From Cyanidioschyzon merolae (taxonomy: Eukaryota), in assembly GCA_000091205.1 (NCBI GenBank), contig AP006500.2: a stretch of DNA of 64,000 bases; one strand, given 5' to 3'. This document shows, piece after piece, positions 4,790-53,830 of this stretch. Position numbers and translations under genes: made by a program. The notes beneath the pieces are model-generated. The model was given only the letters and a program-made list of their open reading frames with translations. It searched no databases and had not been told where the DNA came from. Position 1 is the first letter of the stretch, and each line of letters opens with the position of its first letter.

Positions 4790-5455
4790 TGCAGATACCA
4801 GTATGAAGAGGCGCGAAAAGTCATTCCAGGAACCGGCCTTGAATACCCGAACATCCACCATACCAGAATGAAGAGGCACGAAAAGTCAGAATGGTAGTGT
4901 GCCCTATGTACCCGAACATCCACCACACCAGATTGAAGAGGCACGAAAAGTCAGAATGGTTATGTGCACTACGCACCCGAACATCCACCATACCAGTATG
5001 AAGAGGCACGAAAAGTCATTCCAGGAACCGGCCTTGAATACCCGAACATCCACCATACCAGAATGAAGAGGCACGAAAAGTCAGAATGGTTATGTGCACT
5101 ACGCACCCGAACATCCACCATACCAGTATGAAGAGGCACGAAAAGTCATTCCAGGAACCGGCCTTGAATACCCGAACATCCACCGATACCAGAGTGAAGA
5201 GGCACGAAAAGTCAGAATGGTTATGTGCACTACGCACCCGAACATCCACCATACCAGTATGAAGAGGCACGAAAAGTCATTCCAGGAACCGGCCTTGAAT
5301 ACCCGAACATCCACCGATACCAGAGTGAAGAGGCACGAAAAGTCAGAATGGTTATGTGCACTACGCACCCGAACATCCACCATACCAGTATGAAGAGGCA
5401 CGAAAAGTCATTCCAGGAACCGGCCTTGAATACCCGAACATCCACCGATACCGAA
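4790..5455. repeat. Tandem array with higher-order structure: 130-131 bp unit made of two alternating 65-66 bp subunits sharing the core atgaagaggcacgaaaagtca, about 10 subunits, ending at the G6PD start codon
   Basis: Direct reading: ccagtatgaagaggcacgaaaagtcattccaggaaccggccttgaatacccgaacatccaccatac alternates with cagaatgaagaggcacgaaaagtcagaatggttatgtgcactacgcacccgaacatccaccatac. The 131-bp unit starts at about 4993, 5123, 5254 and 5384, with a variant copy from about 4798. Confidence 0.9.
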
Positions 5456-10199: not shown

Positions 10200-12119
10200 A
10201 CTGCGTTACGGACGAGTTGCTCAGATTTGGCCACAACATAGGGAAACGGAGCGATAGCCTGGCATGCTCGTCCGACTCGTGGGGCCTTCCGTCTAAAAGG
10301 TAAACTTTCGACAATACCGAAATCTTTTCCCCTTTTTGACGTTTATCGTAGATGGTAAAAGGAATTTTTTATCGTTGCAAGTGAGTGGTTAGTCTCTGTC
10401 CTTTGTTCTACATAGTGCGGTCGATACGCGTACCTCCATATCTAGCAGGCATGAGATACGACGTGCATCTTGTCGCTACAGGGAATAGCGACCCTCACCG
10501 TTATCGTATTGATGGAATATACAAGTTGCATTTGCGTAACAGCCGTACCAAAATGCAAGGTTTCCATTCAGTTGTGTTTCAACCCTCAAGTCAGTGTACT
10601 CATGTGATTTTTTTCCGGTTTATATCAGAAGCGTTCAAAGTGCGTTCTTTTTCAGAAAGAAATAAGAAAGGAAAGTTGTCGAAATGGAAGTGGAGGATCC
10701 CGAAGGCCCTGGGTCACCACCTGGCAGAAAAAACGAAAAAAAGTGCCGCGCGAAGAGGAACAGGAGAATACCAAGGAGCGAACATGGACGCCCCACGTCA
10801 CAAGCTGTCTGAATCGAGAACTCGAACGCAAGGCGGAGATGGAGCTGGGTGTCGAAAAAATGAAGAGTCCGTGGAACGGAAGACTGCGCTTCTCGGGAAG
10901 CGATTCGACGCCGTTCCGTGATATGCAACATCAAGTGGCACTCTGCGACCATCGACTCCAGTGTCCGTCATGGCATTATGAGGGAGACCAGCTCCGAGTT
11001 CGATGTAAGCAACAAGGAATTCACAGGTGAAAACCGGGAGACGTACTGGAAGTATATCGTAGACTTGAAACGTCTCGAAACGGGCAAGAAAAGGCATCCA
11101 CGGAGACGATCGAAACCGATGGTGTAGCCATGTGTGTACGCTATCGGCGGTCGAAGGCAGATCGTCCTGGTCCGCCTTCGATATCGCCCTCGGGGAAGCA
11201 TGAAGAAAAGGAAATGGCAGATCCTAGGATGCAGGAGGTGCAGGAGAGCGACTTTGTTGTTGGCGCGGACCCTGGGGCTACGAACATCGTAACCATCGCA
11301 GTACCCAAGCGTGCGGAAAATGGCATTCGCGGCAACTTGCATCAGAAAGATATGCGTATTTTGAGGTTCTCGAGAGCGAGATACTATCGAGAATCGGGAA
11401 TCATGAATACGAGGAAGAAAATCGAGACATGGAATGCAGGAATGAATGAGCACCAGGAAGCTATGAGCCAGGTGACGAGCCGAGGAGCGGACTGTCGAGC
11501 TTTTCGGGAGTTCATGGAAGTTCGTGTTGCCCATTGGGATGCGCTGTGGGAGGAGTATACCAAGCCCCGGTGGGCTCGTTTGCGTATGAATCTATACGGT
11601 GGGAAGCAGCGGGCCTTTACGAATTCTTTCAATCAGTTGAGTGCCCTGAAGGAGGATGAGAGTCAGGGGCTCGTAGTAGCGTACGGGGCAGGGCGATGGA
11701 AGACCCAAAAAGGGACTACGCCAGCTCCAACGACGAGAACGTGTAAGGAGTGCGCACGGCGTTTTGTTACAATACCGATAGATGAGTTCCGAACGTCCTA
11801 TACACACCATGAGCTGGGGTGTACGCTTCAGAGAGTGGAGATGGAAAAGCGCCAAAGGAGTCCTGAGGAAATCGCAAAGTACGGACCGCTGACGGAGGAG
11901 CAAATGGAAAGGAGAGCGAAAGTTCGAGGATTGCTTGCATTAGTAAGTACAACCAACGATGGCAAGAAACGTATGGAGTTTGTGAACCGAGAATTCAATG
12001 CCGCTATGAATATCAGGAGATGTGCGCTGTTGGAGAATAGACCTCCGGAGTCGACAAGAGGGAACTTGTTGGACAACCTCTCAAAGTGGAACTATATGAG
12101 AAAAAATTGGAAGAAGTAG
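10200..12119 (+). mobile_element. AT-richer island carrying a TnpB/Fanzor-like (OrfB_Zn_ribbon, RuvC-fold) transposon-associated nuclease gene; upstream part fragmented across three reading frames (introns or decay)
   Basis: Composition drops visibly (about 48-50% GC against about 60% in flanks) from about 10.2 to 12.1 kb. Adjacent ORFs in three + frames (10385-10921, 10743-11030, 10918-11127) precede the main ORF 11130-12119. The main ORF carries the RuvC-I GxDxG motif ([12 protein letters not shown]), a zinc ribbon (TCKEC...HHELGC) and a RuvC-III-like NAAxNI motif ([13 protein letters not shown]). Confidence 0.5.
11130..12119 (+). CDS. TnpB/Fanzor-like RuvC nuclease homolog (C-terminal RuvC-I, Zn-ribbon and RuvC-III segment); the canonical catalytic Asp of RuvC-III is replaced (DRDxNAAxNI becomes [10 protein letters not shown]), so it is possibly inactive or domesticated
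   Basis: ATG at 11130. Motifs [67 protein letters not shown]. Basic C-terminal tail. The stop TAG at 12117-12119 is followed in the same frame by a 457-codon ORF. Confidence 0.45.
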
Positions 12120-13493
12120 TTGGTGGCCCGTCGAGAAAGACGGGGAGGCGTCCGCACACCAGTTGGCGACGCTATATCTAACACGCGTTCGCCGCCACTA
12201 CTGTACACCGCTGGCGACTGCTTGCGACCTTTGAAAAGCTTTCGGTCGACACGAAACACCCCTAAAAGGCGATACCGTACATCCCTAAGCAACTCGATAA
12301 AAGATTTGCAACCTCCCAGCGCACGCATGCTTCGGTACAGCTTCATTAACGCCGTCTGGCCGTCCAAGTCATGCGGCAGGGTCCACGTTGAGCGCCATCG
12401 AAAGCAGAAGACACAGTCTGTACAAACTGCACAGCGCTGGAAACTGCGGGCGAACTTGAACCGGCGAGGTCCAGACTCAGCGACCTGGGATCGGCAGGGC
12501 GGTGGCCAGGCGGAGCGCCTGCTTATGGAGCAGGTACTGCAACTGAGGCGAGAGTTAGATGCCTTGCGAGCGGAGAATGAGAGTTTGCGTAAATATCGTG
12601 TCAACGAGCACCTGCTCGTGGATGCCGACGACTCTGTCACAACCGAGGACGGACGGACGCGTTGCGGCAAGCACGGGGAGCGCTCGCGCTATTTACCGGT
12701 CTATTCAGTCGCCCCTGAAGAGGTTCTAAGCCGCGTCATCCCCGTCATTGGACCTAACCCAACGATCGAGCAACTCGACGCAGCAATCACGCTGTCGTTC
12801 CAAGTACGCGATGAGCTGGTGAACCGACGTGGGCTCGAGCGTTACGAGGATGTCATGGCTGGTCGATTCCTCGTGTTCCAGACCAGTGAACTACCTGTCA
12901 AGGGGGTCCAGAGAGTCGCCCTTCCTGGTACGGTAGGATCGATGCGCTGGGCGTCGGCACCAGTTGGTATCCTGATGCCTGCCTCCGAGCTGGGACTGGA
13001 GTCCTTCTACCCGAACGCTCCGACGGATGTCAACTGTCTTGTCATTATCGAGGCTGATTTCGATTCAGAGATCCCCGCGGATACCCTGGCATCACCTGAC
13101 ATCATTCGCGACATCCGAGACGGTACCAAAGACGTGCTCGACCGTATCGAAAACGTTTGGTTCGACGAGCAAGGCCGCGCGTCTCGCGATGCCGGCTTTC
13201 CGAGCTCGCTCACTGAAGAGACAGAAACCGACGAGGACGAGCAACCAGACGAAAACGGTGACGGACCGGAATTCAGTCCGGGGAAATTTTACCTCTGGCT
13301 GGAGGAGAGGCCTCCGCAGGGCGTCGAGTCCGGCGAGGAGCCAGCCCACAGGTGGCACGTTCGCTGGTATGAGCGTCGTCCAGACCCCGCGGTTGACGGT
13401 GTGGAATGCGTTGGCCGCGTGATTACCGTGATAGCACCGAGCGCTTCAAGGCGTCGCACCAAGACGTTTGCCGAAGAGGACGATGTGTTCTAA
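12120..13493 (+). CDS. Hypothetical protein (coiled-coil segment LMEQVLQLRRELDALRAENESLRKY, acidic DE-rich C-terminal region). It is in the same frame as the upstream TnpB-like ORF; the first in-frame ATG is at 12327
   Basis: A 1374-nt stop-free frame at about 60% GC is far longer than chance allows. No recognisable domain. The track start is a TTG; ATG at 12327 (SARMLRYSF). Confidence 0.4.
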   Translation: MVARRERRGGVRTPVGDAISNTRSPPLLYTAGDCLRPLKSFRSTRNTPKRRYRTSLSNSIKDLQPPSARMLRYSFINAVWPSKSCGRVHVERHRKQKTQSVQTAQRWKLRANLNRRGPDSATWDRQGGGQAERLLMEQVLQLRRELDALRAENESLRKYRVNEHLLVDADDSVTTEDGRTRCGKHGERSRYLPVYSVAPEEVLSRVIPVIGPNPTIEQLDAAITLSFQVRDELVNRRGLERYEDVMAGRFLVFQTSELPVKGVQRVALPGTVGSMRWASAPVGILMPASELGLESFYPNAPTDVNCLVIIEADFDSEIPADTLASPDIIRDIRDGTKDVLDRIENVWFDEQGRASRDAGFPSSLTEETETDEDEQPDENGDGPEFSPGKFYLWLEERPPQGVESGEEPAHRWHVRWYERRPDPAVDGVECVGRVITVIAPSASRRRTKTFAEEDDVF

Positions 13494-24793: not shown

Positions 24794-26156
24794 CCAGAGC
24801 GGGCCTCTGGTCGAGTCCATGGAACCAGAGTGCACAGCAGGCAGGCAGGCAGGCAGGCAGGCAACCGACTCGAGGATCATGATAGGCAGCGCGCTGGTCG
24901 AGTCTAGTCATGCTCCAGGGCACAACGCCGGGCTATGCGTCGTTCAACAGAGACGCACTGGTCTGTTTTTTGATTCGATGGGTAGAGGCGGCAGCATCGG
25001 GATTCCAACGGGGAATCTTCGCGAACCACATATCGTATCGCACGTTTCACTGGGATTGATTTACGACGCTTTCTTGATACGCAACCTCTAAATACCGATG
25101 CATCATTCATTCGTTCATTCATTGGTTGATTCTAGCGTTGCGCTGTGGATCTGTTGCGGTGGTGCTGGCACGATCACCAACAGGCAACTGCGTACCAGCG
25201 GGCGTACCGTGCGCACCAGCTGCTACATACAACCCGAGTCGGTGTCGCAGCATCCGTTGCTTGGAGTGAGCGCCTACAACCGGATTCTCAACGTTCATGG
25301 CGGTAAGCAACAAAGTGCACCAGCTCGAGTCTGAACGATATGTTTACGGATCGGGACGTGTGCGAGACAAAAGCGTAAATGTCAGCGCAGCTGCTACCAA
25401 GCACGCGAGTTGCTTCGAAGAAAGATGCACCGCTCTGCGAACATATCAGGCACCGAGGACGAATGCTCTCCACGAATGGGCGATGGATCGTGTACTTGGT
25501 CTGGAGTGTTGGCGAATCGTCGTGGAGTGCGCCTCTGCCGGACGCCAGCGTCTGTAGTGACGATACAGAGGCACGGACGTCGTACGGACACCAGGTCTCG
25601 CGAATCCAGCGCATGTGCATCACTCTGGATCGTAGGTACCGCAGCAGGTGACCCGGGAAAGGCGCGCGAGTGAGTTTCCCATCCATCACGTGGAGACGCG
25701 GAAAACGGCAATCGAAACGTATGGGAGCGGTCAAGTGAAGCGTCCCGGTACCTGGTTTGCGCGCTTCTCTAGGAGAGCACAGGTGCGCGGTGCTCGCGCA
25801 CCACCACGCGCGACGGTCGCTGCTGCTGGTGCTAAACTCGGGCATCGGCCAGCGGTATTTTCGTCATTCGCGTCCGAGACGGAGTTAGCGAGTCAGCGGC
25901 AGCTGGGCGGCTCGATATGGGAGAAAGCGCGTACCCGGTGGTTTCCCTGGTCAGCTGTCCATCCGACCGTTATGTGCCGCCTTCGAACCGAGCGCCAATA
26001 CGGGATCAATGAATAGGCTGTGTATCGCATTGCGAGGCTGCAGGCGAACCGAAAAGCGCGCACAAGTCTGCGGCTCCAACAGACGTATTCACCAACATGT
26101 ATCGATATGTGCTGAAAACCCGCAATCGGGAAGTATCCCGGAATACGCACCATGCC

Positions 26157-28457: not shown

Positions 28458-28599
28458 CACGTCCGTCAATGAACAAGCACGTGTTCGTTAGAGCAACGAA
28501 GCAGTATGGACACGTGCGTGGTGTGTGCCCCGTGATCGCTACGCTTTTTCGACGCAAAGCCGCAACGACCTGCTCCAGGCGAGCGGCGAACGCCCCAGA

Positions 28600-29810
28600 C
28601 GTACAGTGCTGGTGCGAGACGCCCGGAGCGTTCCATGCGGTGGGAAACGTCCCCGCCGCCTCCTCCTCCTCCTCGTGCACACAACCGACACCGCCAAAGC
28701 ACAAAGCGTGAAACGTGATCACTGGTACGGAATAGCGTCAACACTGGGTGCTTGTTCATGGATGGGCTATGGACGGTGGTCCCGGGCAGTGCCGTGCGGT
28801 GGGAAACGTCCCCGCCGCCTCCTCCTCCTCCTCGTGCACACAACCGACACCGCCAAAGCACAAAGCGTGAAACGTGATCACTGGTACGGAATAGCGTCAA
28901 CACTGGGTGCTTGTTCATGGATGGGTTATGGACGGTGGTCCCGGGCAGTGCCGTGCGGTGGGAAACGTCCCCGCCGCCTCCTCCTCATCCTCCTCCTCCT
29001 CCTCGTGCACACAACCGACACCGCCAAAGCACAAAGCGTGAAACGTGATCACTGGTACGGAATAGCGTCAACACTGGGTGCTTGTTCATGGATGGGCTAT
29101 GGACGGTGGTCCCGGGCAGTGCCGTGCGGTGGGAAACGTCCCCGCCGCCTCCTCCTCATCCTCCTCCTCCTCCTCCTCGTGCACACAACCGACACCGCCA
29201 AAGCACAAAGCGTGAAACGTGATCACTGCTACGGAACAGCGTCAACACTGGGTGCTTGTTCATGGATGGGTTATGGACGGTGGTCCCGGGCAGTGCCGTG
29301 CGGTGGGAAACGTCCCCGCCGCCTCCTCCTCATCCTCCTCCTCCTCCTCGTGCACACAACCGACACCGCCAAAGCACAAAGCGTGAAACGTGATCACTGG
29401 TACGGAACAGCGTCAACACTGGGTGCTTGTTCATGGATGGGTTATGGACGGTGGTCCCGGGCAGTGCCGTGCGGTGGGAAACGTCCCCGCCGCCTCCTCC
29501 TCATCCTTCTCCTCCGCCTCGTGCACGCAACCGACACCGCCAAAGCACAAAGCGTGAAACATGATCACTGGTACGGAACAGCGTCAACACTGGGTGCTTG
29601 TTCATGGATGGGTTATGGACGGTGGTCCCGGGCAGTGCCGTGCGGTGGGAAACGTCCCCGCCGCCTCCTCCTCATCCTCCTCCTCCGCCTCGTGCACACA
29701 ACCGACACCGCCAAAGCACAAAGCGTGAAACGTGATCACTGGTACGGAATAGCGTCAACACTGGGTGCTTGTTCATGGATGGGTTATGGACGGTGGTCCG
29801 GGTGCAAACC
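28600..29810. repeat. Tandem minisatellite, about 7 copies of a 159-174 bp unit containing a variable (CCT)n tract, immediately upstream (about 140 bp) of the RRM-protein start codon
   Basis: The unit ggtggtcccgggcagtgccgtgcggtgggaaacgtccccgccgcc(tcc)n tcgtgcacacaaccgacaccgccaaagcacaaagcgtgaaacgtgatcactggtacggaatagcgtcaacactgggtgcttgttcatggatgggttatggac recurs with period 159, 159, 171, 174, 170, 172 bp. The track ORFs 28525-29901 (+) and 28466-28918 (-) are translations of this repeat. Confidence 0.9.
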
Positions 29811-30679
29811 TGCTTGGCGGGTACCAACTTGGTCGTGGTTTACGCGTGTGACAAGCGTACCCGAAGCGCGTATCGTCATGAATGGATTTCGTGCTTGGTA
29901 GGCTGCGGACTGGATGCAAAGCTGCTCGATGCAGTGTAGCAGCGGAGTCGATGTTGGATAGCAGCAGTGTTTGGTTGACGTGCATCACTGGGGTTGCGTG
30001 AGTGAGGCATCAGGAATCACGTTATAGAAAAAGATGTATGTCAACGATGAGCACTCAGGGCATGATCGCGGGGGAGTCGAGGTCGCATCATCCGGCATCC
30101 GCAACGATCGAAAATGATGTTGCTTCCCTGCTGTTGGCGGCTATGTGTTCGGTACCAGGTATTGTGTTCGGGTGCAATACGCAACGTCCATCGCTCAACA
30201 AACATGAAGGATAAGTAGCATGGCGGAGGAGTTTCAGAGGAGCGCGGATCCCTGGACCGGTTGCGCTGCTCGCGCTCGGTAAATGTTTCCGATCCTGTTC
30301 TCGGCGAATAGGATCGATATTCAGAGAGCAGTAGTACAGGATTCGGGACACTAGGTCGACTTTTTGAAACGGCTGGTTCGGCGAGTTGCCGCTGCAATTC
30401 ATCAAGTCACTGAAATCAAGATGAATTGTGATGTCGGCGAACACCGGTGCCGCAAAGTAATCCATTTCGCGATCCAATGCATACGTACATGCCTCCACTA
30501 GTCCCATTTGCTTACACGCAGCACGCTGGAATCATGCGCTCTTCAACTTGTCGATCTTTCTGTTCTAAAAAAACTCCCGGGTGTAGTGATTCGCGTGGCT
30601 GGGTCCCCGGGCTCAGAAACTCAACGTCGTGCCTTGACGACTTTATATACAACTCCGGCCGAAATATCACTGAAACGCT

Positions 30680-32748: not shown

Positions 32749-32779
<31 letters not shown>

Positions 32780-36189: not shown

Positions 36190-36520
36190 CCGGGCGACAC
36201 AATGCATCCATCGATGAATGCCGGGAAGTATCGTCCAATAATATTCATTATTGACGCAATTTTCGAAGCAACCCGACACAATGCATCCATCGATGAATGC
36301 CGGGAAGTATCGTCCAATAATATTCATTATTGACCCAATTTTCGAAGCAACCCGACACGATGCATCCATCGATGAATGCAAGGAAGTATCGTCCAATGAT
36401 ATTCATTATTGACCCAATTTTCGAAGCAACCCGACACGATGCATCCATCGATGAATGCCGGGAAGTATCGTCCAATAATATTCATTATTGACCCAATTTT
36501 CGAAGCAATCCCCTGCGGGA
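36190..36520. repeat. Tandem array, 4 copies of an 81-bp AT-richer unit containing two near-palindromes, about 150 bp upstream of the NusG-like ATG
   Basis: Unit gacacRatgcatccatcgatgaatgccgggaagtatcgtccaataatattcattattgacccaattttcgaagcaaccc repeated from about 36193, 36276, 36356 and 36437. Near-palindromes: gcatccatcgatgaatgc and aataatattcattatt. Confidence 0.9.
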
Positions 36521-40629: not shown

Positions 40630-42906
40630 ATGGTTGAGTACAAGCCTATATCTTTCTGGACAAATCAGAGACACCATCGACAGCGACCTGCGATGGCATC
40701 CCTGTGGACGCGCGCGGCGGCGCCTCTGTCGCGCACCCAGCACACCCGCGTCCGACGGACAGCTCGCGGATGCGCTTCTGGTGCCGAACACCAGAGGCCG
40801 GTGTTCATGGCAACCACCGCAGAGGCAGCGGCGGCCTTGGCTTCAGATATAACACCCGAGGACTTTGCAGGCTATGAGTGTTTGCTGTGCCAACGCCGGG
40901 GTGCTCTCGTGGTCTGCAGCAACGCAGAGCGGTACACTTGTCGTGCTTGCGTCTGCAGGGCCTGCTTCCGACGCTGGGGCTGGTCGTGGGAGCGCTACAC
41001 AAGCGCCTCGGTTGACGTACCCTTTCTCTGTCCGAGATGTTTGGTGAGCGAGCCCATTCTAAGCTTCGAGACTGGAATGCTAGAGGAGGAGGAGGAGGAG
41101 GCGTCGCCACGCGCGTCAGAAGTTAGCGACACACCAACGTTGAGGGAGAAACTAAGCATGGTACAAGCGTTCTACGCGTGCAGCCGCAGCCCTCTTTTCC
41201 GCAGCGAGGACACGTACCGGAACGGTCGACGCCGTCCTGGGACCAAGTTCGGCACCACAGCATCCGAAACGCTCTCTGGCGTGAAGCGCTCGCCGAATCG
41301 AGTCTGCGTCTGGCGGCGGCTCGACGCTGCACCCGTCGCACGCTACACATCGGATGGGCGCGAGTTCTTCTGTAGACTCGGGGATGGGACGCATAGTCAT
41401 CATCCGCTTTTATGGTGCAGTGCATGTCCGGCAGCGTATCATGCGCCGAGTTGTCTCAGCGCCGCCGCTGCTGCTGCTGCTGCTGCTACATCAGTTACAA
41501 CGACAAGTCTGACATCGGATGAGCAGGAGCAGCAGAACGTTGCGACGACACCACGCACTGGTGTCGACGCAGACCGGCAAACATTCTGGCTCTGTCCGTT
41601 TTGCCGTCGCCAGCGTCTACCATGGTGGCAGAACAGCTCAGAATCAGCACCCGGTACCGTGCTGCAGAAACGACATCGACACCAGCGGGTGCAGCAGCGA
41701 CTGCGACAACCAGCGGCGCTGCTGGAGGCACTCGCGCGCTATTGTCGCAGAACCTGGCCGCCGCGTGTCTTCAGCGGACCCCGGTTCGTAGTGCTCTCTC
41801 TCTTTGACGGTTTGGCATCTGCGCGTCACGCGCTGGCCTTGCTGCAGATACCACCGACGCTCATCCGGTACTACGCTTCCGAGATCGATCGAGACGCACT
41901 GGCTGTGGCACAGTCGCAGTACCCGGACGTGCTTCAGCTGGGGCCAGTCGAGCACCTGGCCGCCTTTGACGACATTCCCGAGCAGATCGATCTGCTGATC
42001 GGCGGCTCACCGTGTACTTCCTTGAGCGGCCTCGGGAAGCGCAAAGGACTGTATCACGGCACATCGGCACTGTTTTTCGAGTTCCTGCGCATCAAACGCG
42101 TCATGAAACCGCGTTTTTACCTGTTCGAAAATGTAGCGTCCATGCGTTGTGCCGACAAGCGTCGCATTCACCAGCTGCTGAACGCGAGCAGACTCAACGA
42201 AGCAAGCACAAGTGCCGACCAACGAAAAAACAGTGTCCTGGTCGAGTTGGATGCAGCCCGTGTGACCGCGAGCCTGCGTCGACGCCTCTATGTGGCGAAC
42301 TTCCCGTTGCCCGCGACGGATGCCGCGCTCCCCGATTGGAACCTGCGTCTCCAAGACGTTCTAGATCGCGACGGTAGTATTGCCGAGTCGGCCAAGGCGT
42401 TCTGTATCACGACGAATAACATGCAGGGTCGTCCAGGAGATTCCCGTTTCAATGTGATTGCAATGCCGGAGCAGGGCGTGCGACGCGGAGTGCGCATCCA
42501 CGAAGCCGAAAAATGTCTCGGCTTTCCGGCAGGCTACACAGCGGTGTTGGCAAAGCGATCCGAGGGAGCAATGCCCCGACGCTGGCGACTCTTGGGGAAT
42601 GCGTTTGCACCACCGTTGATTGCGCTGCTTTTGAGGCCGCTGCTAGAGCACAGCGTGATCGGCGCGTATCTGGAGCGAGCTGCGGTGCTCCCGCACCTCG
42701 AAGCGGCCTGTCGGGAGCAACTCCGGGGTGATCGCCCGGAGGCGAACACGCTTGTGCTCGTGAAGGTTATGCTCCAGAGGCCATCGCATGCCCAGCTCAC
42801 TGGAGACGATGAGGGCACGGTGTCTTGCGAGTCGCGTATGCGCTCCGTGGCGGGCGCTCAGCGCACCAACAGCGATACCTGTCTTGTTCGGGGGAGCACG
42901 AGATAG
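40630..42906 (+). CDS. DNA (cytosine-5)-methyltransferase, DNMT3-like, with N-terminal Cys-rich PHD/ADD-type zinc fingers
   Basis: ATG at 40630, TAG at 42904-42906. Motif I VVLSLFDGLASARHAL, motif IV GGSPCTSLSG (PC), motif VI FYLFENVASM (ENV), motif X RLLGNAFAPPLIALLL. N-terminal Cys clusters: YECLLCQRRGALVVCSNAERYTCRACVCRAC, FLCPRCL, WCSACPAAYHAPSC, FWLCPFCRRQ. Confidence 0.8.
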   Translation: MVEYKPISFWTNQRHHRQRPAMASLWTRAAAPLSRTQHTRVRRTARGCASGAEHQRPVFMATTAEAAAALASDITPEDFAGYECLLCQRRGALVVCSNAERYTCRACVCRACFRRWGWSWERYTSASVDVPFLCPRCLVSEPILSFETGMLEEEEEEASPRASEVSDTPTLREKLSMVQAFYACSRSPLFRSEDTYRNGRRRPGTKFGTTASETLSGVKRSPNRVCVWRRLDAAPVARYTSDGREFFCRLGDGTHSHHPLLWCSACPAAYHAPSCLSAAAAAAAAATSVTTTSLTSDEQEQQNVATTPRTGVDADRQTFWLCPFCRRQRLPWWQNSSESAPGTVLQKRHRHQRVQQRLRQPAALLEALARYCRRTWPPRVFSGPRFVVLSLFDGLASARHALALLQIPPTLIRYYASEIDRDALAVAQSQYPDVLQLGPVEHLAAFDDIPEQIDLLIGGSPCTSLSGLGKRKGLYHGTSALFFEFLRIKRVMKPRFYLFENVASMRCADKRRIHQLLNASRLNEASTSADQRKNSVLVELDAARVTASLRRRLYVANFPLPATDAALPDWNLRLQDVLDRDGSIAESAKAFCITTNNMQGRPGDSRFNVIAMPEQGVRRGVRIHEAEKCLGFPAGYTAVLAKRSEGAMPRRWRLLGNAFAPPLIALLLRPLLEHSVIGAYLERAAVLPHLEAACREQLRGDRPEANTLVLVKVMLQRPSHAQLTGDDEGTVSCESRMRSVAGAQRTNSDTCLVRGSTR

Positions 42907-44219
42907 CGCATTCGCTGCGCTGCGCTGCGCTGCGCTGCGGTATCGAAGGACGCATTCAGTAGCATGCCATTCGACAGCGGAGTCGTTTCGCCGCTCGTCG
43001 CATCTGTGTAGAGGACGCTCTTGCGCCTCAGAGTGCACTTGGCCAGAGCGCTGGATCCAGCCAGCCTCAAATCGACGACGAAAGAGGCGAACGCACCTGT
43101 AGGCTGCTACGACTGCTGTGGGTTGCGCTGACCGCTGTTGCTGCTTCCGATTGCGTGCAGAAACAAAAAACGCGCAGTGCAGAACGGCTTGGTGTCACGG
43201 GACGCACAGGACGTAGGCTCTGGACGCAAATCATCTGCGACTGGTGTCCGGACGCCTCGTGGAGCAACTCCGCTCCACGTCCTGTGCCTGGGTAGATTGC
43301 AGCATGCGATTCCAGCGGGAGCGCTGCTCGCTAGTCAGTGCACCGGGAAAAACATCGCACGAGCACCCAGGTACGGGTCCAGGCCTGGAGCAAGCGACTC
43401 GAACATGCCGTCTGCGCTCTGCTATAGAGGCGTGCAGCGTGCTTCGGGGCGATTGCATCTGGGTCTCGAATACGACCTCGTGCGTTTCGTATCTGTTCGC
43501 TGGCGCGTTCACTCGTGCGTATCGCGTCATCGTTGGCGTTCGTGTATACACATCCGGTGGACGCGTCGATCAAGCGCTGCGAAACGCTTCCCGACGCCTT
43601 GACGAGCATACCGCTCCGAGCTGAACACAGTCTCTCGGACGATGCTAGGCGAGCCAGTAATTCGCGGTGTCAACCAGATAATATCCGAGCTGGGTGCAAG
43701 CGTCATGACGCTGCGACACCAGCAGAACGTGAATGCAGGTCTCGGGAAGTGTCGTACCAGGAAGCTGCACCTCGGATGCACGGCAGCATCCGATCTCTGC
43801 GGTTCCATATCACTTCAGCGCCTCCACGCGAGCGCTCTTCCCTGTCTGTAGACGATATGCATGAGGCTCACGCGACGCGACACCACGCCATGGTTGATCC
43901 CGCGCAGTGCCGTGCGACAAGCAGCAGCAGCAGCAGCAGCAGCAGCATGAACAAGCGCAGCAGTGTCGCGTTCGGAGGTAGCTGATGCGACGCCCCCGCT
44001 TGCCCGCCTCCCCTCGGCACCGCACTATCATCCAAGAAACCGTCCCGCAAGAGATGCGGCAACAACTCGGGTGCTGCACCGAGCGCTGGACGTTGCACTC
44101 TGTGTACAGCATGCGTTCACAATGTGTATAAAACACATCAAGCTCGGCTTTGGAGCTGCTGGTGAGCGCCATACCCGCGCTCCGTACGAGCCGGTGCTCG
44201 TGAAGACGCCCCGCCCCAG

Positions 44220-47200
44220 TTAACCTTTCTCGAGTAAACTCAATGTCAAGAGCACGATAAAAAGCAAGACCGCTGTGCGGTAAGTTGCCCCCAGACCAGG
44301 CCACTGTGCGAGCACGATCTGCACCAACAAGGACAACCAGAAGAGCGGCTCCGTCCAAACAGGCCAGGGTTTGGGCACCGGCTGTCGCTTCAGGAAACCG
44401 TTCTCGCCTATGACGAGCCGGGGAGAGATTCGTAAGCGTCGTAGTCGGCCCGAGGCCTCGTTGCCGTGTTGACGGGAACGTGCTACGGTCCGACTAGCGG
44501 AGGTGCGGCTCTGAAAGGCCGCCAAAACATACGCAGAGATGATACTCGAGGTCGCGTCAATCTCAATCCACTGAAAACAACGCGGATATGGCACGTCGTT
44601 CCAGCCATGGGCGAAGCTATAAACCGTCGTAACGAGCACAAGAACGTTACTCACGACTGCGGTCCATTCGATGAGTCCGTGGTCGGCCCAGGTGAGCTGC
44701 TCAGGTGGCCAGTTGCCTCCGAGGAGGCAGCTCAGCACGAAAAAGTGCCAAGTGATGTGCAAGATCCACAGCCCAATGGGCATGGACGGTTGATGCTCCA
44801 CAAGAGCAGATTCCACGACCAAGGATGCTGCGGACTGCTGCAATGCTCTCGCTCGTACCATGGCGAGATGTTGGTGCAGAATATGCCTACCGAGGCGCGG
44901 CAATAAGATAGCGTAGAGCGCCAGAAAGCCGGTATCCAGCGAGAAGAACATCTGGCTGAAGCGCTGAAGCAAACGACGACGCGAGCTACGACGCCAACGA
45001 GTTCCCAGTGAGGCACTCCGTAGACGTTGCAGAATCGCTACCCATCGTATCCCAGAGGCATCATGCTGGAGCCGAAACTGACTCAGAATTCGGATGAAAC
45101 ATTTTGCGGGATACCAGAGCGACGCCAGTGCCGAGGTATAGCGGCAGTGCAGTGCGCGTCGAAGCCATGAGCGCGGAGCTGCAGTTCGGGGCCTCCAGAG
45201 CCGCCCTGCTGAGCACGCAAGACGAAGACAACTGAGAAGCTTCCAAGTCGATCGTCGAGGCGCTCGCACAGCGGCTGACATGATCAACGCTCGCTCCGTA
45301 ACATTGCACGCTGGTGCTGGTGATATCGCTCCCGCTGGGACGAACTCGGAGGATCCAGACAGAATCTCGTGGACTGGACACGGTGCTCCATGTGCCCGAG
45401 TCTGCGCTCGTGTGCGGCTCACGCTGTGTAGGCCAGGAGACGAAGATGCATCCGCCGCTGATAATGACGACGATGACGATGACGATAAGGATATTGATGT
45501 TGATGGCGGAGCATTTGTGGCGGGAATACGCCTCCAGTGAGCATCCGCTGCGATAGGCTCCTGTGAGGCGTTGCAACTGCCGCTGCAAGCAGAGGTTCCC
45601 GGAGTCGTCACGGAGCGATGCGGGGAGCTCGAGGCAGCTGGCCTCGTGCGGTACGCTCCTGCCTCACTCGTGCTGCCTTTTGCCTCCTCCGCTTCGACAG
45701 CATCCATAGTAGGCACCGAGGCGGTAGCCGTGCCTGCAGCAGTTTCGTTCGCTGATGCAGTCTCGCTCTGGATAGCATCGGATGCAGATACCGTAGCAGG
45801 TATCGTATACCGAGTATCGCTTCTAGCATTGTGGTTCGTTGTTGCACTCTCGTGCTTAGCACTGGGTAGCTGGGTAGTCGCATTGGTGCACTGAGTGGAG
45901 ACTGTCTCCCCTGATTGTCCGTTTTCGCTACGAACGAGACGTTGCGAGACTGTCGGCTGCACCGCACTGGTAGCGCCTTGAAGCATCAACGGGACCTGCG
46001 GCGAGTTCTCTGGGGCTACGCTGTGCGCTGAGCTGCGCTCGACACCAGGTGACGATAAGACAGCAGCAGCAGCAGCAGCAGCGCTACGATGGACTGCTGG
46101 CTGCCTTAACCCCGCGGGCGACGCATTTGCAGGTGCAACACTCGGTTTTGGCAGACATGTCTGGTCCCAGAAAGGTCTCGTTGAGACAGGGCAGCGTGAT
46201 ACTCGCTCCGCGTCACTGATACGATCGCTTGACGCTGAGACCGGCGTCAGTATCGTCTGTCTAGAGACTTGTGTCGTAGCAATAGGTTTGACGAGTGACT
46301 CCCGCGAGCTTCTCTGAGTAAACGTACCCAAGGAGACGTTCTGGAGGGACGACCATGGACCCGGTGTGCAGGCGCTGAAGCGTTCTCTTTCATCCACCGG
46401 TATGCAAGGCGTGTCTGTGACAATGCTAAGCGGAAGTTGGAGGCTTGGTGTATTTTGCTCTGCGGCGGCATGGGAGCTGCGTATTCTTGGCGACAAAGCA
46501 GCAAGACTCGCGCTGTTTGATGCTTGCGAGTGATCCTTGCCCAAAGCAGGGATCCTGTCCACACCCTGACCGTGCATCATTGGCGGCAGCAGTGTTGCCA
46601 CATCCGCAAGATGCAATCGGTCCCGGGACTCGCTTTCACCAGTGCGAAAGAGCGCCCCTCGTACGTCGCTGTCGTCAGTTGAAGGCAACTCTGGGACTTT
46701 CCGTCGTCGCCATCCCCAGTCCTCTACCTGCATCGTCGCTGCATCGTTGCCGTGGCTCCAGTGACACTTGAAGGGCGCCGAGGCCGCCAAGGGAGTGCTC
46801 ATCAGAGATGCCCCAAGGCAGTCAACCGGAGCAGACGTGCTCGGCGACGGAGATGGATTGTCCAGAGTCTGCATTTGCTCCTCCTGTTGCTGCCGTTGAT
46901 GTTGTTGTTGTTGCTTCCAAATCGGGGAGAGACGCTGTTGAAGCGTCGGCAACAGGCTCGAAAATTCCAATTCCGAGCGATTCTCCGGATAATTTGTGAG
47001 CCACCACACGAGATATTTGTAAGCATCCTCCTCATCTGCCGGATGGAAAAATCGACAACGACTTTCACCACGGTAGCAGTTCGGCCAGAAGCGACACAGA
47101 CCGCGAGCTTTCTTCTTTGCCAATCCAGCCTGTGCTTTCTCGGATATCGATGTCGAGCTCGCTGCGGACGTCGTAGGCACGAAAGGGGTTCCGGTTTCCG

Positions 47201-48287
47201 ACGGCAGCGAACTGTTCGTGTGCCGCAAAGCTTGGTCTGCAGGTCGCGGCTCACGGCTCAAGCCTGCTCTGCGAGTTCCACTCGGTCGGCTGGAGAAGGG
47301 TCCAGCACGATGCCTAGACGACGACTCAGGTCCGTGATTTCCTTCACCAGGTTCAGTGCGTTCCTGACGCAAGTGACGCTGTGTGCTTGAAGGCAAGCTG
47401 GGTATGTCCCGCCCGAACGCATATCGCGGAGATGGCGACACTGCTCGATCGTAATGCCAACCCCGATCAAGCAGGCTCTCACTTACGCGCTCCATATCCT
47501 CGGTATGAGACGTCAAGTTGGGACTGTGCTGCCTGTTGGTAACGCTGGCTGGCGGCAGGACCACGTCCTCCGGTTCCAGCAAGTCTCGAATCATCGCGAC
47601 CATCAGGGAACTGCAACCGAGACTGATTTCGATATCCTCAGGTTCCTGGTCATGATCAGGATTATCTCTCAGTGATGCTTGTGCCGCAGATGCAACTGCC
47701 GGTGCTTGGAAGGTTGTCTTCGCGGACCCGGATTGCAAGCATGTCTCATGCCTGACGCTCGGCGGTAAGTTCGGGAAACGAGCGGGGAGGTCGCTTACAC
47801 TGGCCCCTCGATGCTCGGATGTGTGCAACGATACATACTCAGTGGCTTCAAAGGTCCCAAGTCCAGTCTTCGTCGCCGGACGGCCAACCCAGGCGGGGGA
47901 AGGCTGTTGCCGCGTCCCTTGGAGGCTCACTGGCGAAACCGGTGCACTTGCAGGAATGCGCTGATCGAACTGAGGTTCAGAACTCCAGTGAGGAGTTTCC
48001 CACGAAAATCTGCCAGACGCAGCTTCGGCCAGCAATGGGGGGCTGCTCGCGTCCCCGGGCGACAAGCCGCCACTGATGTGCCGCGCCTGTTCAACGTCCG
48101 CCCGCTCCGCACGCTGCGAACTCTGCTTGGTGCGTGAACCCTTAGAGCCCAAAGAAGGGAGGGCGAAACTTCCCGTCCGTGTACCCTCTCCGGGTGATGT
48201 CGCCATATCAGTCTTCAGGCGGGATGAAGCTTTGCTGCGCAAACCAGAGAAGCCATGTCCCTGTGCAGCATCGAGCGCCAACACCAT
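44220..48287 (-). CDS. Hypothetical large protein: about 800-aa Ser/Pro/Ala-rich low-complexity N-terminal region, a CCCH-like zinc-finger motif (CRFWPNCYRGESRCRFFH), and a C-terminal multipass membrane domain
   Basis: ATG at 48287. A 1355-codon open frame is far beyond chance length. The C-terminal about 300 aa have several hydrophobic helices (LWILHITWHFFVLSCLLGG, VVSNVLVLVTTVYSF, LFWLSLLVQIVLAQW, AVLLFIVLLTLSLL). Whether it is one gene or a fusion of two cannot be decided without transcripts. Confidence 0.4.
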   Translation of the reverse strand: MVLALDAAQGHGFSGLRSKASSRLKTDMATSPGEGTRTGSFALPSLGSKGSRTKQSSQRAERADVEQARHISGGLSPGDASSPPLLAEAASGRFSWETPHWSSEPQFDQRIPASAPVSPVSLQGTRQQPSPAWVGRPATKTGLGTFEATEYVSLHTSEHRGASVSDLPARFPNLPPSVRHETCLQSGSAKTTFQAPAVASAAQASLRDNPDHDQEPEDIEISLGCSSLMVAMIRDLLEPEDVVLPPASVTNRQHSPNLTSHTEDMERVSESLLDRGWHYDRAVSPSPRYAFGRDIPSLPSSTQRHLRQERTEPGEGNHGPESSSRHRAGPFSSRPSGTRRAGLSREPRPADQALRHTNSSLPSETGTPFVPTTSAASSTSISEKAQAGLAKKKARGLCRFWPNCYRGESRCRFFHPADEEDAYKYLVWWLTNYPENRSELEFSSLLPTLQQRLSPIWKQQQQHQRQQQEEQMQTLDNPSPSPSTSAPVDCLGASLMSTPLAASAPFKCHWSHGNDAATMQVEDWGWRRRKVPELPSTDDSDVRGALFRTGESESRDRLHLADVATLLPPMMHGQGVDRIPALGKDHSQASNSASLAALSPRIRSSHAAAEQNTPSLQLPLSIVTDTPCIPVDERERFSACTPGPWSSLQNVSLGTFTQRSSRESLVKPIATTQVSRQTILTPVSASSDRISDAERVSRCPVSTRPFWDQTCLPKPSVAPANASPAGLRQPAVHRSAAAAAAAVLSSPGVERSSAHSVAPENSPQVPLMLQGATSAVQPTVSQRLVRSENGQSGETVSTQCTNATTQLPSAKHESATTNHNARSDTRYTIPATVSASDAIQSETASANETAAGTATASVPTMDAVEAEEAKGSTSEAGAYRTRPAASSSPHRSVTTPGTSACSGSCNASQEPIAADAHWRRIPATNAPPSTSISLSSSSSSSLSAADASSSPGLHSVSRTRAQTRAHGAPCPVHEILSGSSEFVPAGAISPAPACNVTERALIMSAAVRAPRRSTWKLLSCLRLACSAGRLWRPRTAAPRSWLRRALHCRYTSALASLWYPAKCFIRILSQFRLQHDASGIRWVAILQRLRSASLGTRWRRSSRRRLLQRFSQMFFSLDTGFLALYAILLPRLGRHILHQHLAMVRARALQQSAASLVVESALVEHQPSMPIGLWILHITWHFFVLSCLLGGNWPPEQLTWADHGLIEWTAVVSNVLVLVTTVYSFAHGWNDVPYPRCFQWIEIDATSSIISAYVLAAFQSRTSASRTVARSRQHGNEASGRLRRLRISPRLVIGENGFLKRQPVPKPWPVWTEPLFWLSLLVQIVLAQWPGLGATYRTAVLLFIVLLTLSLLEKG

Positions 48288-53104: not shown

Positions 53105-53830
53105 CATCATTAAGGTCATCATCACCATCATCATCAGCGATGCCTCTGTTATGATATACATCATACTACATTGATAATCATCATCTTCATCATCATCGTC
53201 AGCGATGCCTCTCATATTCCATACATCATTATACATTGATAAGCATCATTATGGTCATCATCATCATCTTCTTCTTCTTCATCAGCGATGCCTCTCATAT
53301 TCCATACATCATCATACATTGATAAGCATCATTATGGTCATCATCATCATCTTCATCTTCTTCTTCTTCTTCGTCCGCGACGCCTCTCATATTCCATACA
53401 TCATTATACATTGATAAGCATCATAATCGTCGTCGTTAACATCATCATCATCATCTTCTTCTTCATCAGCGATGCCTCTCATACTCCATACATCATCATA
53501 CATTGATAAGCATCATTATGGTCATCATCATCTTCTTCTTCTTCTTCGTCCGCGATCCTCTCATATTCCATACATCATCATACATTGATAATCATCATAA
53601 TCGTCGTCGTTAACATCATCATCATCATCTTCTTCTTCATCAGCGATGCCTCTCATATTCCATACATCATCATACATTGATAAGCATCATTATGGTCATC
53701 ATCATCATCATCTTCTTCTTCTTCTTCTTCGTCCGCGACGCCTCTCATATTCCATACATCATTATACATTGATAAGCATCATTATCGTCGTCGTTAACAT
53801 CATCATCTTCTTCTTCTTCAGCGATAACCG
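53105..53830. repeat. Tandem array of about 8-9 units (about 80-100 bp), each = (CAT)n/(CTT)n microsatellite + agcgatgcctctcatattccatacatcatYatacattgataagcatcatta; each unit carries a GATA-type motif (TGATAAG); the array ends about 200 bp upstream of the S2P protease ATG
   Basis: Direct reading. agcgatgcctct recurs at about 53126, 53200, 53283, 53369 (variant), 53463, 53539, 53643 and 53733. Track ORFs in this interval (MPLIFHTS...HHHH) are translations of the repeat. Confidence 0.88.

Follow-up and report, generated by a model that had tools for sequence, protein, structure and literature searches.

CMR026C, a single-exon gene of Cyanidioschyzon merolae 10D that lies in a 64,000-nucleotide stretch of nuclear DNA (contig AP006500.2, hereafter the window), encodes a DNMT3-family enzyme whose catalytic domain is, in sequence, most similar to that of animal DNMT3A and DNMT3B over its full length. 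Its N-terminal region, judged by sequence comparison, comprises a two-zinc finger like the zf-4CXXC_R1 finger of CDCA7, a short conserved helical segment, and a PHD finger, and it does not form an ADD domain. Taken whole, it is probable that the gene product is a DNMT3-type methyltransferase (MTase) with a truncated CDCA7-like finger and a PHD finger, which would carry out de novo methylation in the diploid phase. The gene itself is nothing new, since it is a known gene annotated in GenBank as DNA methyltransferase-3, appears in published DNMT phylogenies, and has a reported diploid-biased expression. What is possibly new is the reader module alone, i.e., a truncated CDCA7-like finger and a PHD finger joined in one protein with the only DNMT of the organism. 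Neither finger of C. merolae is picked up by standard domain scans, and a literature search found no paper on the domains of CMR026C or on a zf-4CXXC_R1–DNMT fusion.

The intronless open reading frame (ORF) occupies positions 40630–42906 of the plus strand, with 758 codons between an ATG at 40630 and a TAG stop at 42904–42906, and the encoded product matches XP_005538347.1/BAM82311.1/UniProt M1UW44 exactly; the gene ID is taken from the supplement of PMC13353863. An earlier annotation made from the letters of the window alone (the sequence-only reading) had proposed a complete C5-MTase gene here, and it was right in this respect, as the frame is intact and both the catalytic motifs and the N-terminal Cys-rich fingers are present. 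Orthologs occur in Cyanidiococcus yangmingshanensis (~60% identity) and Cyanidium caldarium (45%), and near-identical copies of the gene are found in JGI metagenome contigs. Dnmt3 is the sole predicted DNA methyltransferase of C. merolae, of which 10D is a haploid clone (PMC13353863).

Catalytic domain and its placement in DNMT3

The motifs of the catalytic domain follow the canonical, non-permuted order, with I, II, the PC of IV, the ENV of VI, VIII, IX, and X all present. Motif I (VVLSLFDGLAS, residues 387–397) and motif II (YYASEID, 414–420) are followed by motif IV (GGSPCTSLS, 458–466, with Cys462 as the nucleophile), motif VI (YLFENV, 497–502, with Glu500 in ENV), motif VIII (SLRRRLYVANFP, 548–559), the target recognition domain (TRD)/IX region (AFCITTNN, 590–597), and motif X (RLLGNAFAPPLI, 653–664). 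All motif residues are invariant among the Cyanidiales orthologs despite an overall identity of 45–60%. The Pfam PF00145 match spans residues 388–515 only (E 2e-21). However, a phmmer search of the PDB aligned human DNMT3A over residues 387–674 at an E-value of 8e-27, and the DNMT3A and DNMT3B matches ranged from 8e-27 to 1e-23, compared with 2e-8 for DRM2, 1e-7 to 1e-6 for HaeIII and HhaI, and 3e-4 for DNMT1 in the same search with the MTase domain.

In a rooted neighbor-joining (NJ) tree built from 253 trimmed columns of 4 Cyanidiales enzymes, 8 animal DNMT3s, and 9 phage MTases, with E. coli Dcm as the outgroup, the Cyanidiales enzymes were joined to animal DNMT3 in 168 of 200 bootstraps (84%) and to the phage clade in the remaining 32, while the phage enzymes formed a clade of their own in 184. 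The support that this tree gives is moderate rather than strong because the tree is small, uses a single method and one outgroup, and leaves out DRM, DNMT5, and DNMT6 sequences, which weighs against too firm a placement. The order of the genes for NusG/SAP, DNMT3, RFC1, and an M50 peptidase is conserved in Cyanidioschyzon, Cyanidiococcus, and Cyanidium, and a large ORF with no Pfam match also adjoins the DNMT3 gene in C. merolae and Cyanidiococcus. This sequence context shows vertical inheritance of the gene in a conserved housekeeping neighborhood. A published tree already puts the C. merolae and Galdieria enzymes in DNMT3 and agrees with the patchy distribution of DNMT3 in algae that had been mentioned in the sequence-only reading (PMC9998398). 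The assignment to DNMT3, which that reading also made, thus stands on similarity, the tree, conserved flanking genes, and published placement together; the grouping with animal DNMT3 in 168 of 200 bootstraps and the neighborhood conserved in three genera speak against a bacterial restriction-modification enzyme or a contaminant.

Two N-terminal fingers and the question of an ADD domain

The second of the two Cys clusters (finger 2, residues 242–326) contains C248, C263, C266, H271, C275, C322, and C325, which are conserved in the Cyanidiococcus and Cyanidium orthologs. By its profile and pairwise matches, it is a PHD finger closest to those of CHD4, AIRE, PHF12, and BHC80. Pfam PHD (PF00628) matched two of the five orthologs (best E 1.9e-4), and the Cyanidium finger, which retains all eight ligands, matched CHD4 (3e-8), AIRE PHD1 (1.2e-7), and PHF12 (5e-6) in the PDB, as well as KDM5A PHD1 and PHF21A; a profile of four orthologs matched CHD4 at 1.9e-5. 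The C. merolae finger has seven of the ligands, with H255, H257, and H258 as candidates for the eighth. C. merolae and Cyanidiococcus have another residue in place of the second Cys in the first pair (C248-RLG in C. merolae) and carry a His-rich THSHH insert; the loop before the final CxxC comprises 45 residues with a poly-Ala run at 41461–41487. This run differs by one codon between 10D and the natural strain variant on metagenome contig L001. AIRE PHD1, BHC80/PHF21A, CHD4 PHD2, and KDM5A PHD1 read unmodified H3K4, and since several of the nearest solved relatives do so, unmodified H3K4 is the best guess for the target of finger 2. The acidic residues that we take to be the contacts of AIRE PHD1 with unmodified H3K4 are, however, not conserved in the finger 2 alignment, which weighs against this target and leaves the histone specificity a guess.

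The first Cys cluster (finger 1, residues 82–137) contains C84, C87, C96, C104, C107, C109, C112, C134, and C137, all conserved in the Cyanidiococcus and Cyanidium orthologs, and the proposed ligands C84, C87, C96, C104, C109, C112, C134, and C137 would correspond to Cys 1–8 of the zf-4CXXC_R1 family. An hmmsearch with a Cyanidiales profile of finger 1 and the following helix against 1.84 billion representative proteins returned seven matches at E ≤ 1e-3, namely two orthologs, two repeat-rich proteins that are probably unrelated (P0067 and P0069), and three proteins that carry the finger (P0068, P0070, and P0071; E 5e-4 to 9e-4). Two of these three exceed the cut-off of 22.7 bits of Pfam PF10497 (zf-4CXXC_R1), P0071 with 33.1 and P0068 with 24.6 bits. 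The hhalign comparison of finger 1 with the three proteins gave a probability of 97.8%, a P-value of 6.6e-13, and a score of 65.6 over 57 columns, while column shuffles reached at most 17.4 and Cys-preserving shuffles at most 26.5, which places the score at z ~17 above the latter. Finger 1 and P0068 share 42% identity and line up at every ligand column, and the residue map places the invariant R115-W-G117 at the position of R304-Y-G of CDCA7. Further downstream, L175, A180, F181, Y182, C184, D194, and R197 are invariant within the segment LREKLSMVQAFYACSRSPLFRSEDTYR, where a low-confidence AF2 model has a helix.

P0070 is KAA8497634.1 of the red alga Porphyridium purpureum, which has a zf-4CXXC_R1-like finger at its C-terminus (residues 571–629) despite the reported absence of zf-4CXXC_R1 from Rhodophyta (PMC10538959). 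P0068 is encoded on L092 and P0071 on L093/L094, and contig L094 carries two zf-4CXXC_R1-like genes.

Several points weigh against a full CDCA7 identity for finger 1. The Pfam scan gave no direct PF10497 match for the CMR026C product or its orthologs, so the link to zf-4CXXC_R1 is transitive; the sole direct Pfam signal on the finger is FYVE_2, below threshold, and PDB chains of CDCA7 can be aligned along the entire finger, but at non-significant E-values of 0.5–3. Three of the 11 signature Cys residues are gone, namely Cys 9–11, together with the His of CHxC, and no Cys follows CPRC, which suggests that the third zinc site was lost as a unit. The residues of CDCA7 that read 5-methylcytosine (5mC), R274 and Q275, are replaced with Q88 and R89, and G294 with A106, such that only the equivalent of R304 (R115) is kept; R274, G294, R304, and the C-terminal helices define the requirements of the CDCA7 class I HMZF for hemimethylated CpG (PMC11343034, PMC10538959). 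These helices are needed for the DNA binding of CDCA7 (PMC11343034) and have no evident counterpart in the CMR026C product. The AF2 models are of low confidence, with a pLDDT of 35 for residues 60–386 (four-sequence alignment) and 52 for finger 1 (six-sequence alignment); a Foldseek search of the PDB with the finger 1 model gave E-values above 5 only, with the ADD domain of ATRX at 6. No meaningful PDB match was returned by phmmer with the N-terminal region and a Cyanidiales-only finger profile. Word-indexed searches with N-terminal profiles missed even the known orthologs and are uninformative, presumably because the words are of low complexity or the domain is too short to be indexed. Because of the transitive link, the weak CDCA7 matches in the PDB, and the low-confidence models, the finger is labeled as truncated zf-4CXXC_R1-like, and its residues argue against membership of the CDCA7 HMZF class.

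The same observations could be taken to mean that finger 1 is a divergent cross-brace finger of the PHD/RING/FYVE kind with no specific relation to zf-4CXXC_R1, in keeping with the sub-threshold FYVE_2 signal, the missing Cys 9–11, and a profile search of the PDB in which LIM and PHF21A fragments stand slightly before CDCA7. We consider this unlikely, as the library-wide matches are specifically zf-4CXXC_R1 proteins, the hhalign alignment extends over the entire finger far above the Cys-preserving shuffles, and finger 1 scores just 15 against the PHD finger of its own protein. At the other extreme, finger 1 could be a working derivative of the CDCA7-type methylation-sensing finger, joined to the only DNMT in an organism without DNMT1, which is decidedly unlikely. 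If true, one polypeptide would both set CpG methylation and re-recognize (hemi)methylated CpG, thus forming a self-contained, DNMT3-based maintenance system confined to the diploid phase, and the claims that red algae have no zf-4CXXC_R1 and that microalgal DNMT3s have no chromatin-reading domains would be overturned. Even as a truncated zf-4CXXC_R1-like finger beside a PHD finger, the reader module conflicts with the two published generalizations that red algae are without CDCA7-type fingers and microalgal DNMT3s without chromatin-associated domains.

The sequence-only reading had described the N-terminal cluster as ADD/PHD-like, as in animal DNMT3, and the ADD part of this description did not hold. 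The models for ADD (PF17980 and PF21255) and PWWP (PF00855) match all of the animal DNMT3 hits, but they match neither the CMR026C product nor any ortholog, even at E ≤ 10. Before finger 1, only ~22 residues are conserved, none of them Cys; hence, the protein lacks the GATA-like part of an ADD domain. The spacing of the finger 1 ligands, C-x2-C-x8-C-x7-C-x4-C-x2-C-x21-C-x2-C, is compatible with a C4C4 PHD-type cross-brace, on which the AF2 models are of low confidence, and is close to that of the PHD subdomain of ADD. Correspondingly, hhalign aligned finger 1 with the PHD half of animal ADD domains only (70%, P 4e-5, score 31.2), above the maxima of 21.2 for column shuffles and 24.9 for Cys-preserving shuffles, and it placed the acidic lead-in residues E77 and D78 where an acidic stretch precedes the PHD of ADD. 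However, the generic PHD finger of the same protein scores 28.2 against ADD, so the similarity of finger 1 to ADD is generic and PHD-like. No DNMT3 ADD domain was found among the library-wide matches or among the PDB matches at E ≤ 10. An ADD-like helix after finger 1 (LREKLSMVQAFY, compared with W..RL..MF in animals) was considered and rejected, since the spacing differs and hhalign does not extend there. An animal-like DNMT3 whose ADD domain reads unmodified H3 tails in the service of an active methylation defense against transposons is very unlikely on these grounds, and also because 10D has no nuclear 5mC, silences its transposons by trimethylation of histone H3 at lysine 27 (H3K27me3), and expresses the gene mainly in the diploid phase.

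Life phase, integrity, and surroundings of the gene

In a re-analysis of bisulfite data from 10D, nuclear 5mC was not above the organelle background, and transposons in this strain are repressed by PRC2/H3K27me3 (bioRxiv 10.1101/2022.10.24.513474). The active, methylation-based genome defense put forward in the sequence-only reading is therefore not borne out for the sequenced strain, and for haploid cells, the genome is without detectable cytosine methylation, since the signal does not exceed background. Dnmt3 is predominantly expressed in diploid cells of Cyanidioschyzon, Cyanidiococcus, and Cyanidium (PMC13353863). For the Cyanidiococcus ortholog, the supplement of PMC13353863 gives an mRNA level of ~64 vs ~5, protein as "2n only", and an H3K27me3 log fold change (logFC) of −3.17. 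From its sign, we take this last value to mean that haploid cells carry more H3K27me3, in agreement with the statement in PMC13353863 that phase-specific genes mostly bear the mark in the opposite phase.

A sequence of events can be proposed from these data. In haploid cells, CMR026C would be silenced by Polycomb, which would explain the missing nuclear 5mC in the bisulfite data of 10D, and it would be switched on in the diploid phase. The PHD finger may then dock on the histone H3 tail of diploid chromatin, most likely at unmodified K4, while finger 1 may give a second contact with chromatin or DNA, and the MTase domain would subsequently perform de novo C5 methylation that depends on S-adenosylmethionine. 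Since C. merolae is genetically tractable and its haploid–diploid cycle is now in culture, the targeting of a lone DNMT3 and maintenance without DNMT1 are directly testable in this organism.

The MTase activity of the product is a prediction, which weighs against this proposal, and the lack of nuclear 5mC in 10D could also be accounted for if the gene were a relic, either in decay or without catalytic function. In keeping with this, C. merolae has a degenerate first CxxC in its PHD finger as well as low-complexity poly-Ala and poly-Glu inserts. A relic is nevertheless most improbable. The frame of 758 codons is intact, and no catalytic residue or zinc ligand varies among the genera, despite an overall identity of only 45–60%. 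Moreover, the natural strain variant on L001 has three nonsynonymous and ~5 synonymous differences from 10D plus an additional Ala codon, and none of these falls on a motif or ligand residue; nonsynonymous changes are thus fewer than synonymous ones despite an estimated ~3 times more nonsynonymous sites. These comparisons show an intact DNMT3-type catalytic domain under purifying selection. In addition, mRNA and protein are detected diploid-specifically in the sister genus, and such diploid-specific expression explains the absence of 5mC in haploids.

The similarity of the catalytic domain to phage orphan C5-MTases is about as high as that to animal DNMT3 (115 bits, E 8e-27), which counts against an exclusive affinity to DNMT3. 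An alignment with the MTase of Pseudomonas phage Epa40 takes in 90% of the domain, with 32% identity (E 8e-27), and the best match outside Cyanidiales in the full-length search is the phage-type protein P0005, with 114 bits vs ~95 for animals. P0005 and P0014 lie on phage-like contigs with DnaB, beta-clamp, SSB, RNR, ThyX, PhoH, and homing endonucleases. A scan of metagenomes for finger-bearing, Galdieria-type relatives returned none of these, but one C. merolae-like contig and otherwise phage-type MTases aligned to the catalytic domain alone. Despite these matches, a bacterial-style GN in motif X, and the 32 bootstraps in which the Cyanidiales and phage enzymes are joined, a recent phage or bacterial acquisition or a contaminant is extremely improbable, given flanking genes common to three genera, a GC content like that of the rest of the window, a PHD finger and a zf-4CXXC_R1-like finger of eukaryotic type in the same protein, 168 of 200 bootstraps in favor of animal DNMT3, and a short TRD aligned throughout with DNMT3A. 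An ancient phage–eukaryote relationship of the entire DNMT3 clade is conceivable. Aquatic metagenomes (L002–L005, L007–L009, and L013–L091), together with Pseudomonas phage Epa40, Roseobacter phage CRP-9, and E. coli jumbo phages, hold a large and diverse clade of phage orphan C5-MTases, which is sister to eukaryotic DNMT3 in the small NJ tree.

The coordinates of the features of CMR026C are collected in the following table. The true translation start of the gene may be M60 at 40807, since the first 59 codons are not conserved in orthologs; the frame upstream in Cyanidiococcus is unrelated to them. The metagenome protein P0001 (700 residues) begins at M60 as well, although this is an artefact of a contig that starts 22 nucleotides upstream of M60. 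The composition of the extension (Arg, Ala, Ser, and Thr) is superficially transit-peptide-like. Organelle targeting through this basic extension was rejected, as the extension is unconserved and PHD fingers point to a nuclear role.

Features of CMR026C and its 3′ flank (positions in the window; residues of the encoded product)
Feature	Residues	Position	Strand	Remarks
N-terminal extension	1–59	40630..40806	+	R/A/S/T-rich; not conserved in ortholog alignment
Finger 1 with conserved TPEDFAG lead-in	75–137	40852..41040	+	two-zinc, C-terminally truncated, zf-4CXXC_R1-like (putative)
Segment LREKLSMVQAFYACSRSPLFRSEDTYR	171–197	41140..41220	+	conserved, predicted helical
Finger 2, PHD	242–326	41353..41607	+	Pfam PHD in 2/5 orthologs; CHD4/AIRE matches
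DNMT3-type C5 cytosine methyltransferase domain	385–675	41782..42654	+	motifs I–X in canonical order, short TRD
Catalytic Pro461-Cys462, motif IV	461–462	42010..42015	+	aligns with DNMT3A GGSPCNDLS; invariant in all orthologs
C-terminal tail	676–758	42655..42903	+	not conserved (ortholog alignment)
Perfect (CGCTG)5.4 microsatellite, 27 nt		42913..42939	+	3′ of the stop codon, presumably 3′ untranslated region

The window has a GC content of 50–60% and long uninterrupted ORFs, as expected of its nuclear origin, and the DNMT3 gene is surrounded by housekeeping genes, among them those for TOR kinase, G6PD, beta-adaptin, and RFC1. A Fanzor island had been placed nearby in the sequence-only reading. 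The ORFs taken as this island (11130–13493) are ~27 kb away, and quick checks against Pfam, NCBIfam, and the PDB gave no match and no TnpB/Fanzor signal; the island is thus unconfirmed. ORFs 11130–12119 and 12120–13493 lie in the same frame of the plus strand with a single stop codon between them, in a region of lower GC content with strong positive GC and AT skew. A minus-strand ORF at 44220–48287 (1354 residues), apparently CMR027C, runs convergent to the DNMT3 gene and has no Pfam match. The Cyanidiococcus ortholog of this gene is listed as "n only" (~3 vs ~80), with an H3K27me3 logFC of the opposite sign to that of Dnmt3 (PMC13353863 supplement); hence, the two adjoining genes have opposite life-phase specificity.

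The pentanucleotide repeat that had been noted immediately after the stop codon is present, although it starts 6 nucleotides past the stop. Shuffling of the window gives an expectation of 0.08 occurrences for a 15-nucleotide version of the tract, so the tract is statistically non-random. However, other short perfect microsatellites occur in the window, e.g., (GCAG)6.8 at 24837 and (CTGTCG)5.2 at 32749. The tract has the same length in the strain variant on L001, whereas neither the Cyanidiococcus nor the Cyanidium ortholog has it in its 3′ region. A functional role, of which there is no sign, was rejected for these reasons, and the tract is an ordinary product of slippage, a species-specific microsatellite. 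The window also contains tandem minisatellites at 4795–5452, 28659–29799, 36195–36508, and 53116–53819, with periods of 65, 171/345, 79, and 92 nucleotides, respectively, which may be what had earlier been called SINE-like repeats; the array at 28659–29799 overlaps a mechanically called ORF at 28525–29901.

Comparison with known systems

The C. merolae enzyme resembles animal DNMT3A and DNMT3B in its catalytic domain from end to end, in motif order, in the short TRD, and in the possession of a histone-reader-type finger N-terminal of the MTase domain. It differs from them in having neither a PWWP domain nor a GATA-like finger, and hence no ADD domain, and in a motif X that contains GN instead of the GR or GK of the animal enzymes. 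In the PDB alignment, the residues of DNMT3A that we take to be R836 and D876 correspond to N596 and A638. Contrary to the animal enzymes, it has no DNMT1 partner (PMC13353863).

Phage orphan C5-MTases, such as Pseudomonas phage Epa40 gp50, Roseobacter phage CRP-9 gp12, and the enzymes of E. coli jumbo phages, share the LSLFDG...YYASEID...LLIGGSPC motifs with the C. merolae enzyme at ~30–33% identity over up to 90% of the domain, and some of them are equally short. However, they are viral genes without fingers, form a separate clade (184/200), and often have long TRD inserts. Plant DRM2 is likewise a de novo C5-MTase related to DNMT3, but only its motifs I–IV match (E 2e-8). DRM2 has circularly permuted motifs and UBA domains, while the motif order of the C. 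merolae enzyme is canonical.

The microalgal DNMT3s, e.g., Phatr3_J47136 of Phaeodactylum and those of red algae, dinoflagellates, and Goniomonas, belong to the same family and have all been described as free of chromatin-associated domains (PMC9998398). The Cyanidiales enzymes differ from this description in carrying a PHD finger and, besides it, another finger overlooked in standard domain scans.

With the zf-4CXXC_R1/HMZF finger of CDCA7 (PF10497; PDB 8TLE, 8TLK, and 8YV8), finger 1 shares Cys 1–8 in register and the R-aromatic-G motif, and it resembles the "class II" variants described in PMC10538959 in having a shifted Cys4 and a substitution of G294. CDCA7 is partnered with HELLS, whereas finger 1 is fused to a DNMT. 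Finger 2 shares the CDxCPxxFH core with AIRE PHD1, CHD4 PHD1/2, PHF12, and PHF21A (BHC80), from which the C. merolae version is set apart by its replaced Cys, the His-rich insert, and the 45-residue loop, as well as by the acidic K4 and R2 contact residues of AIRE, which are not conserved in it.

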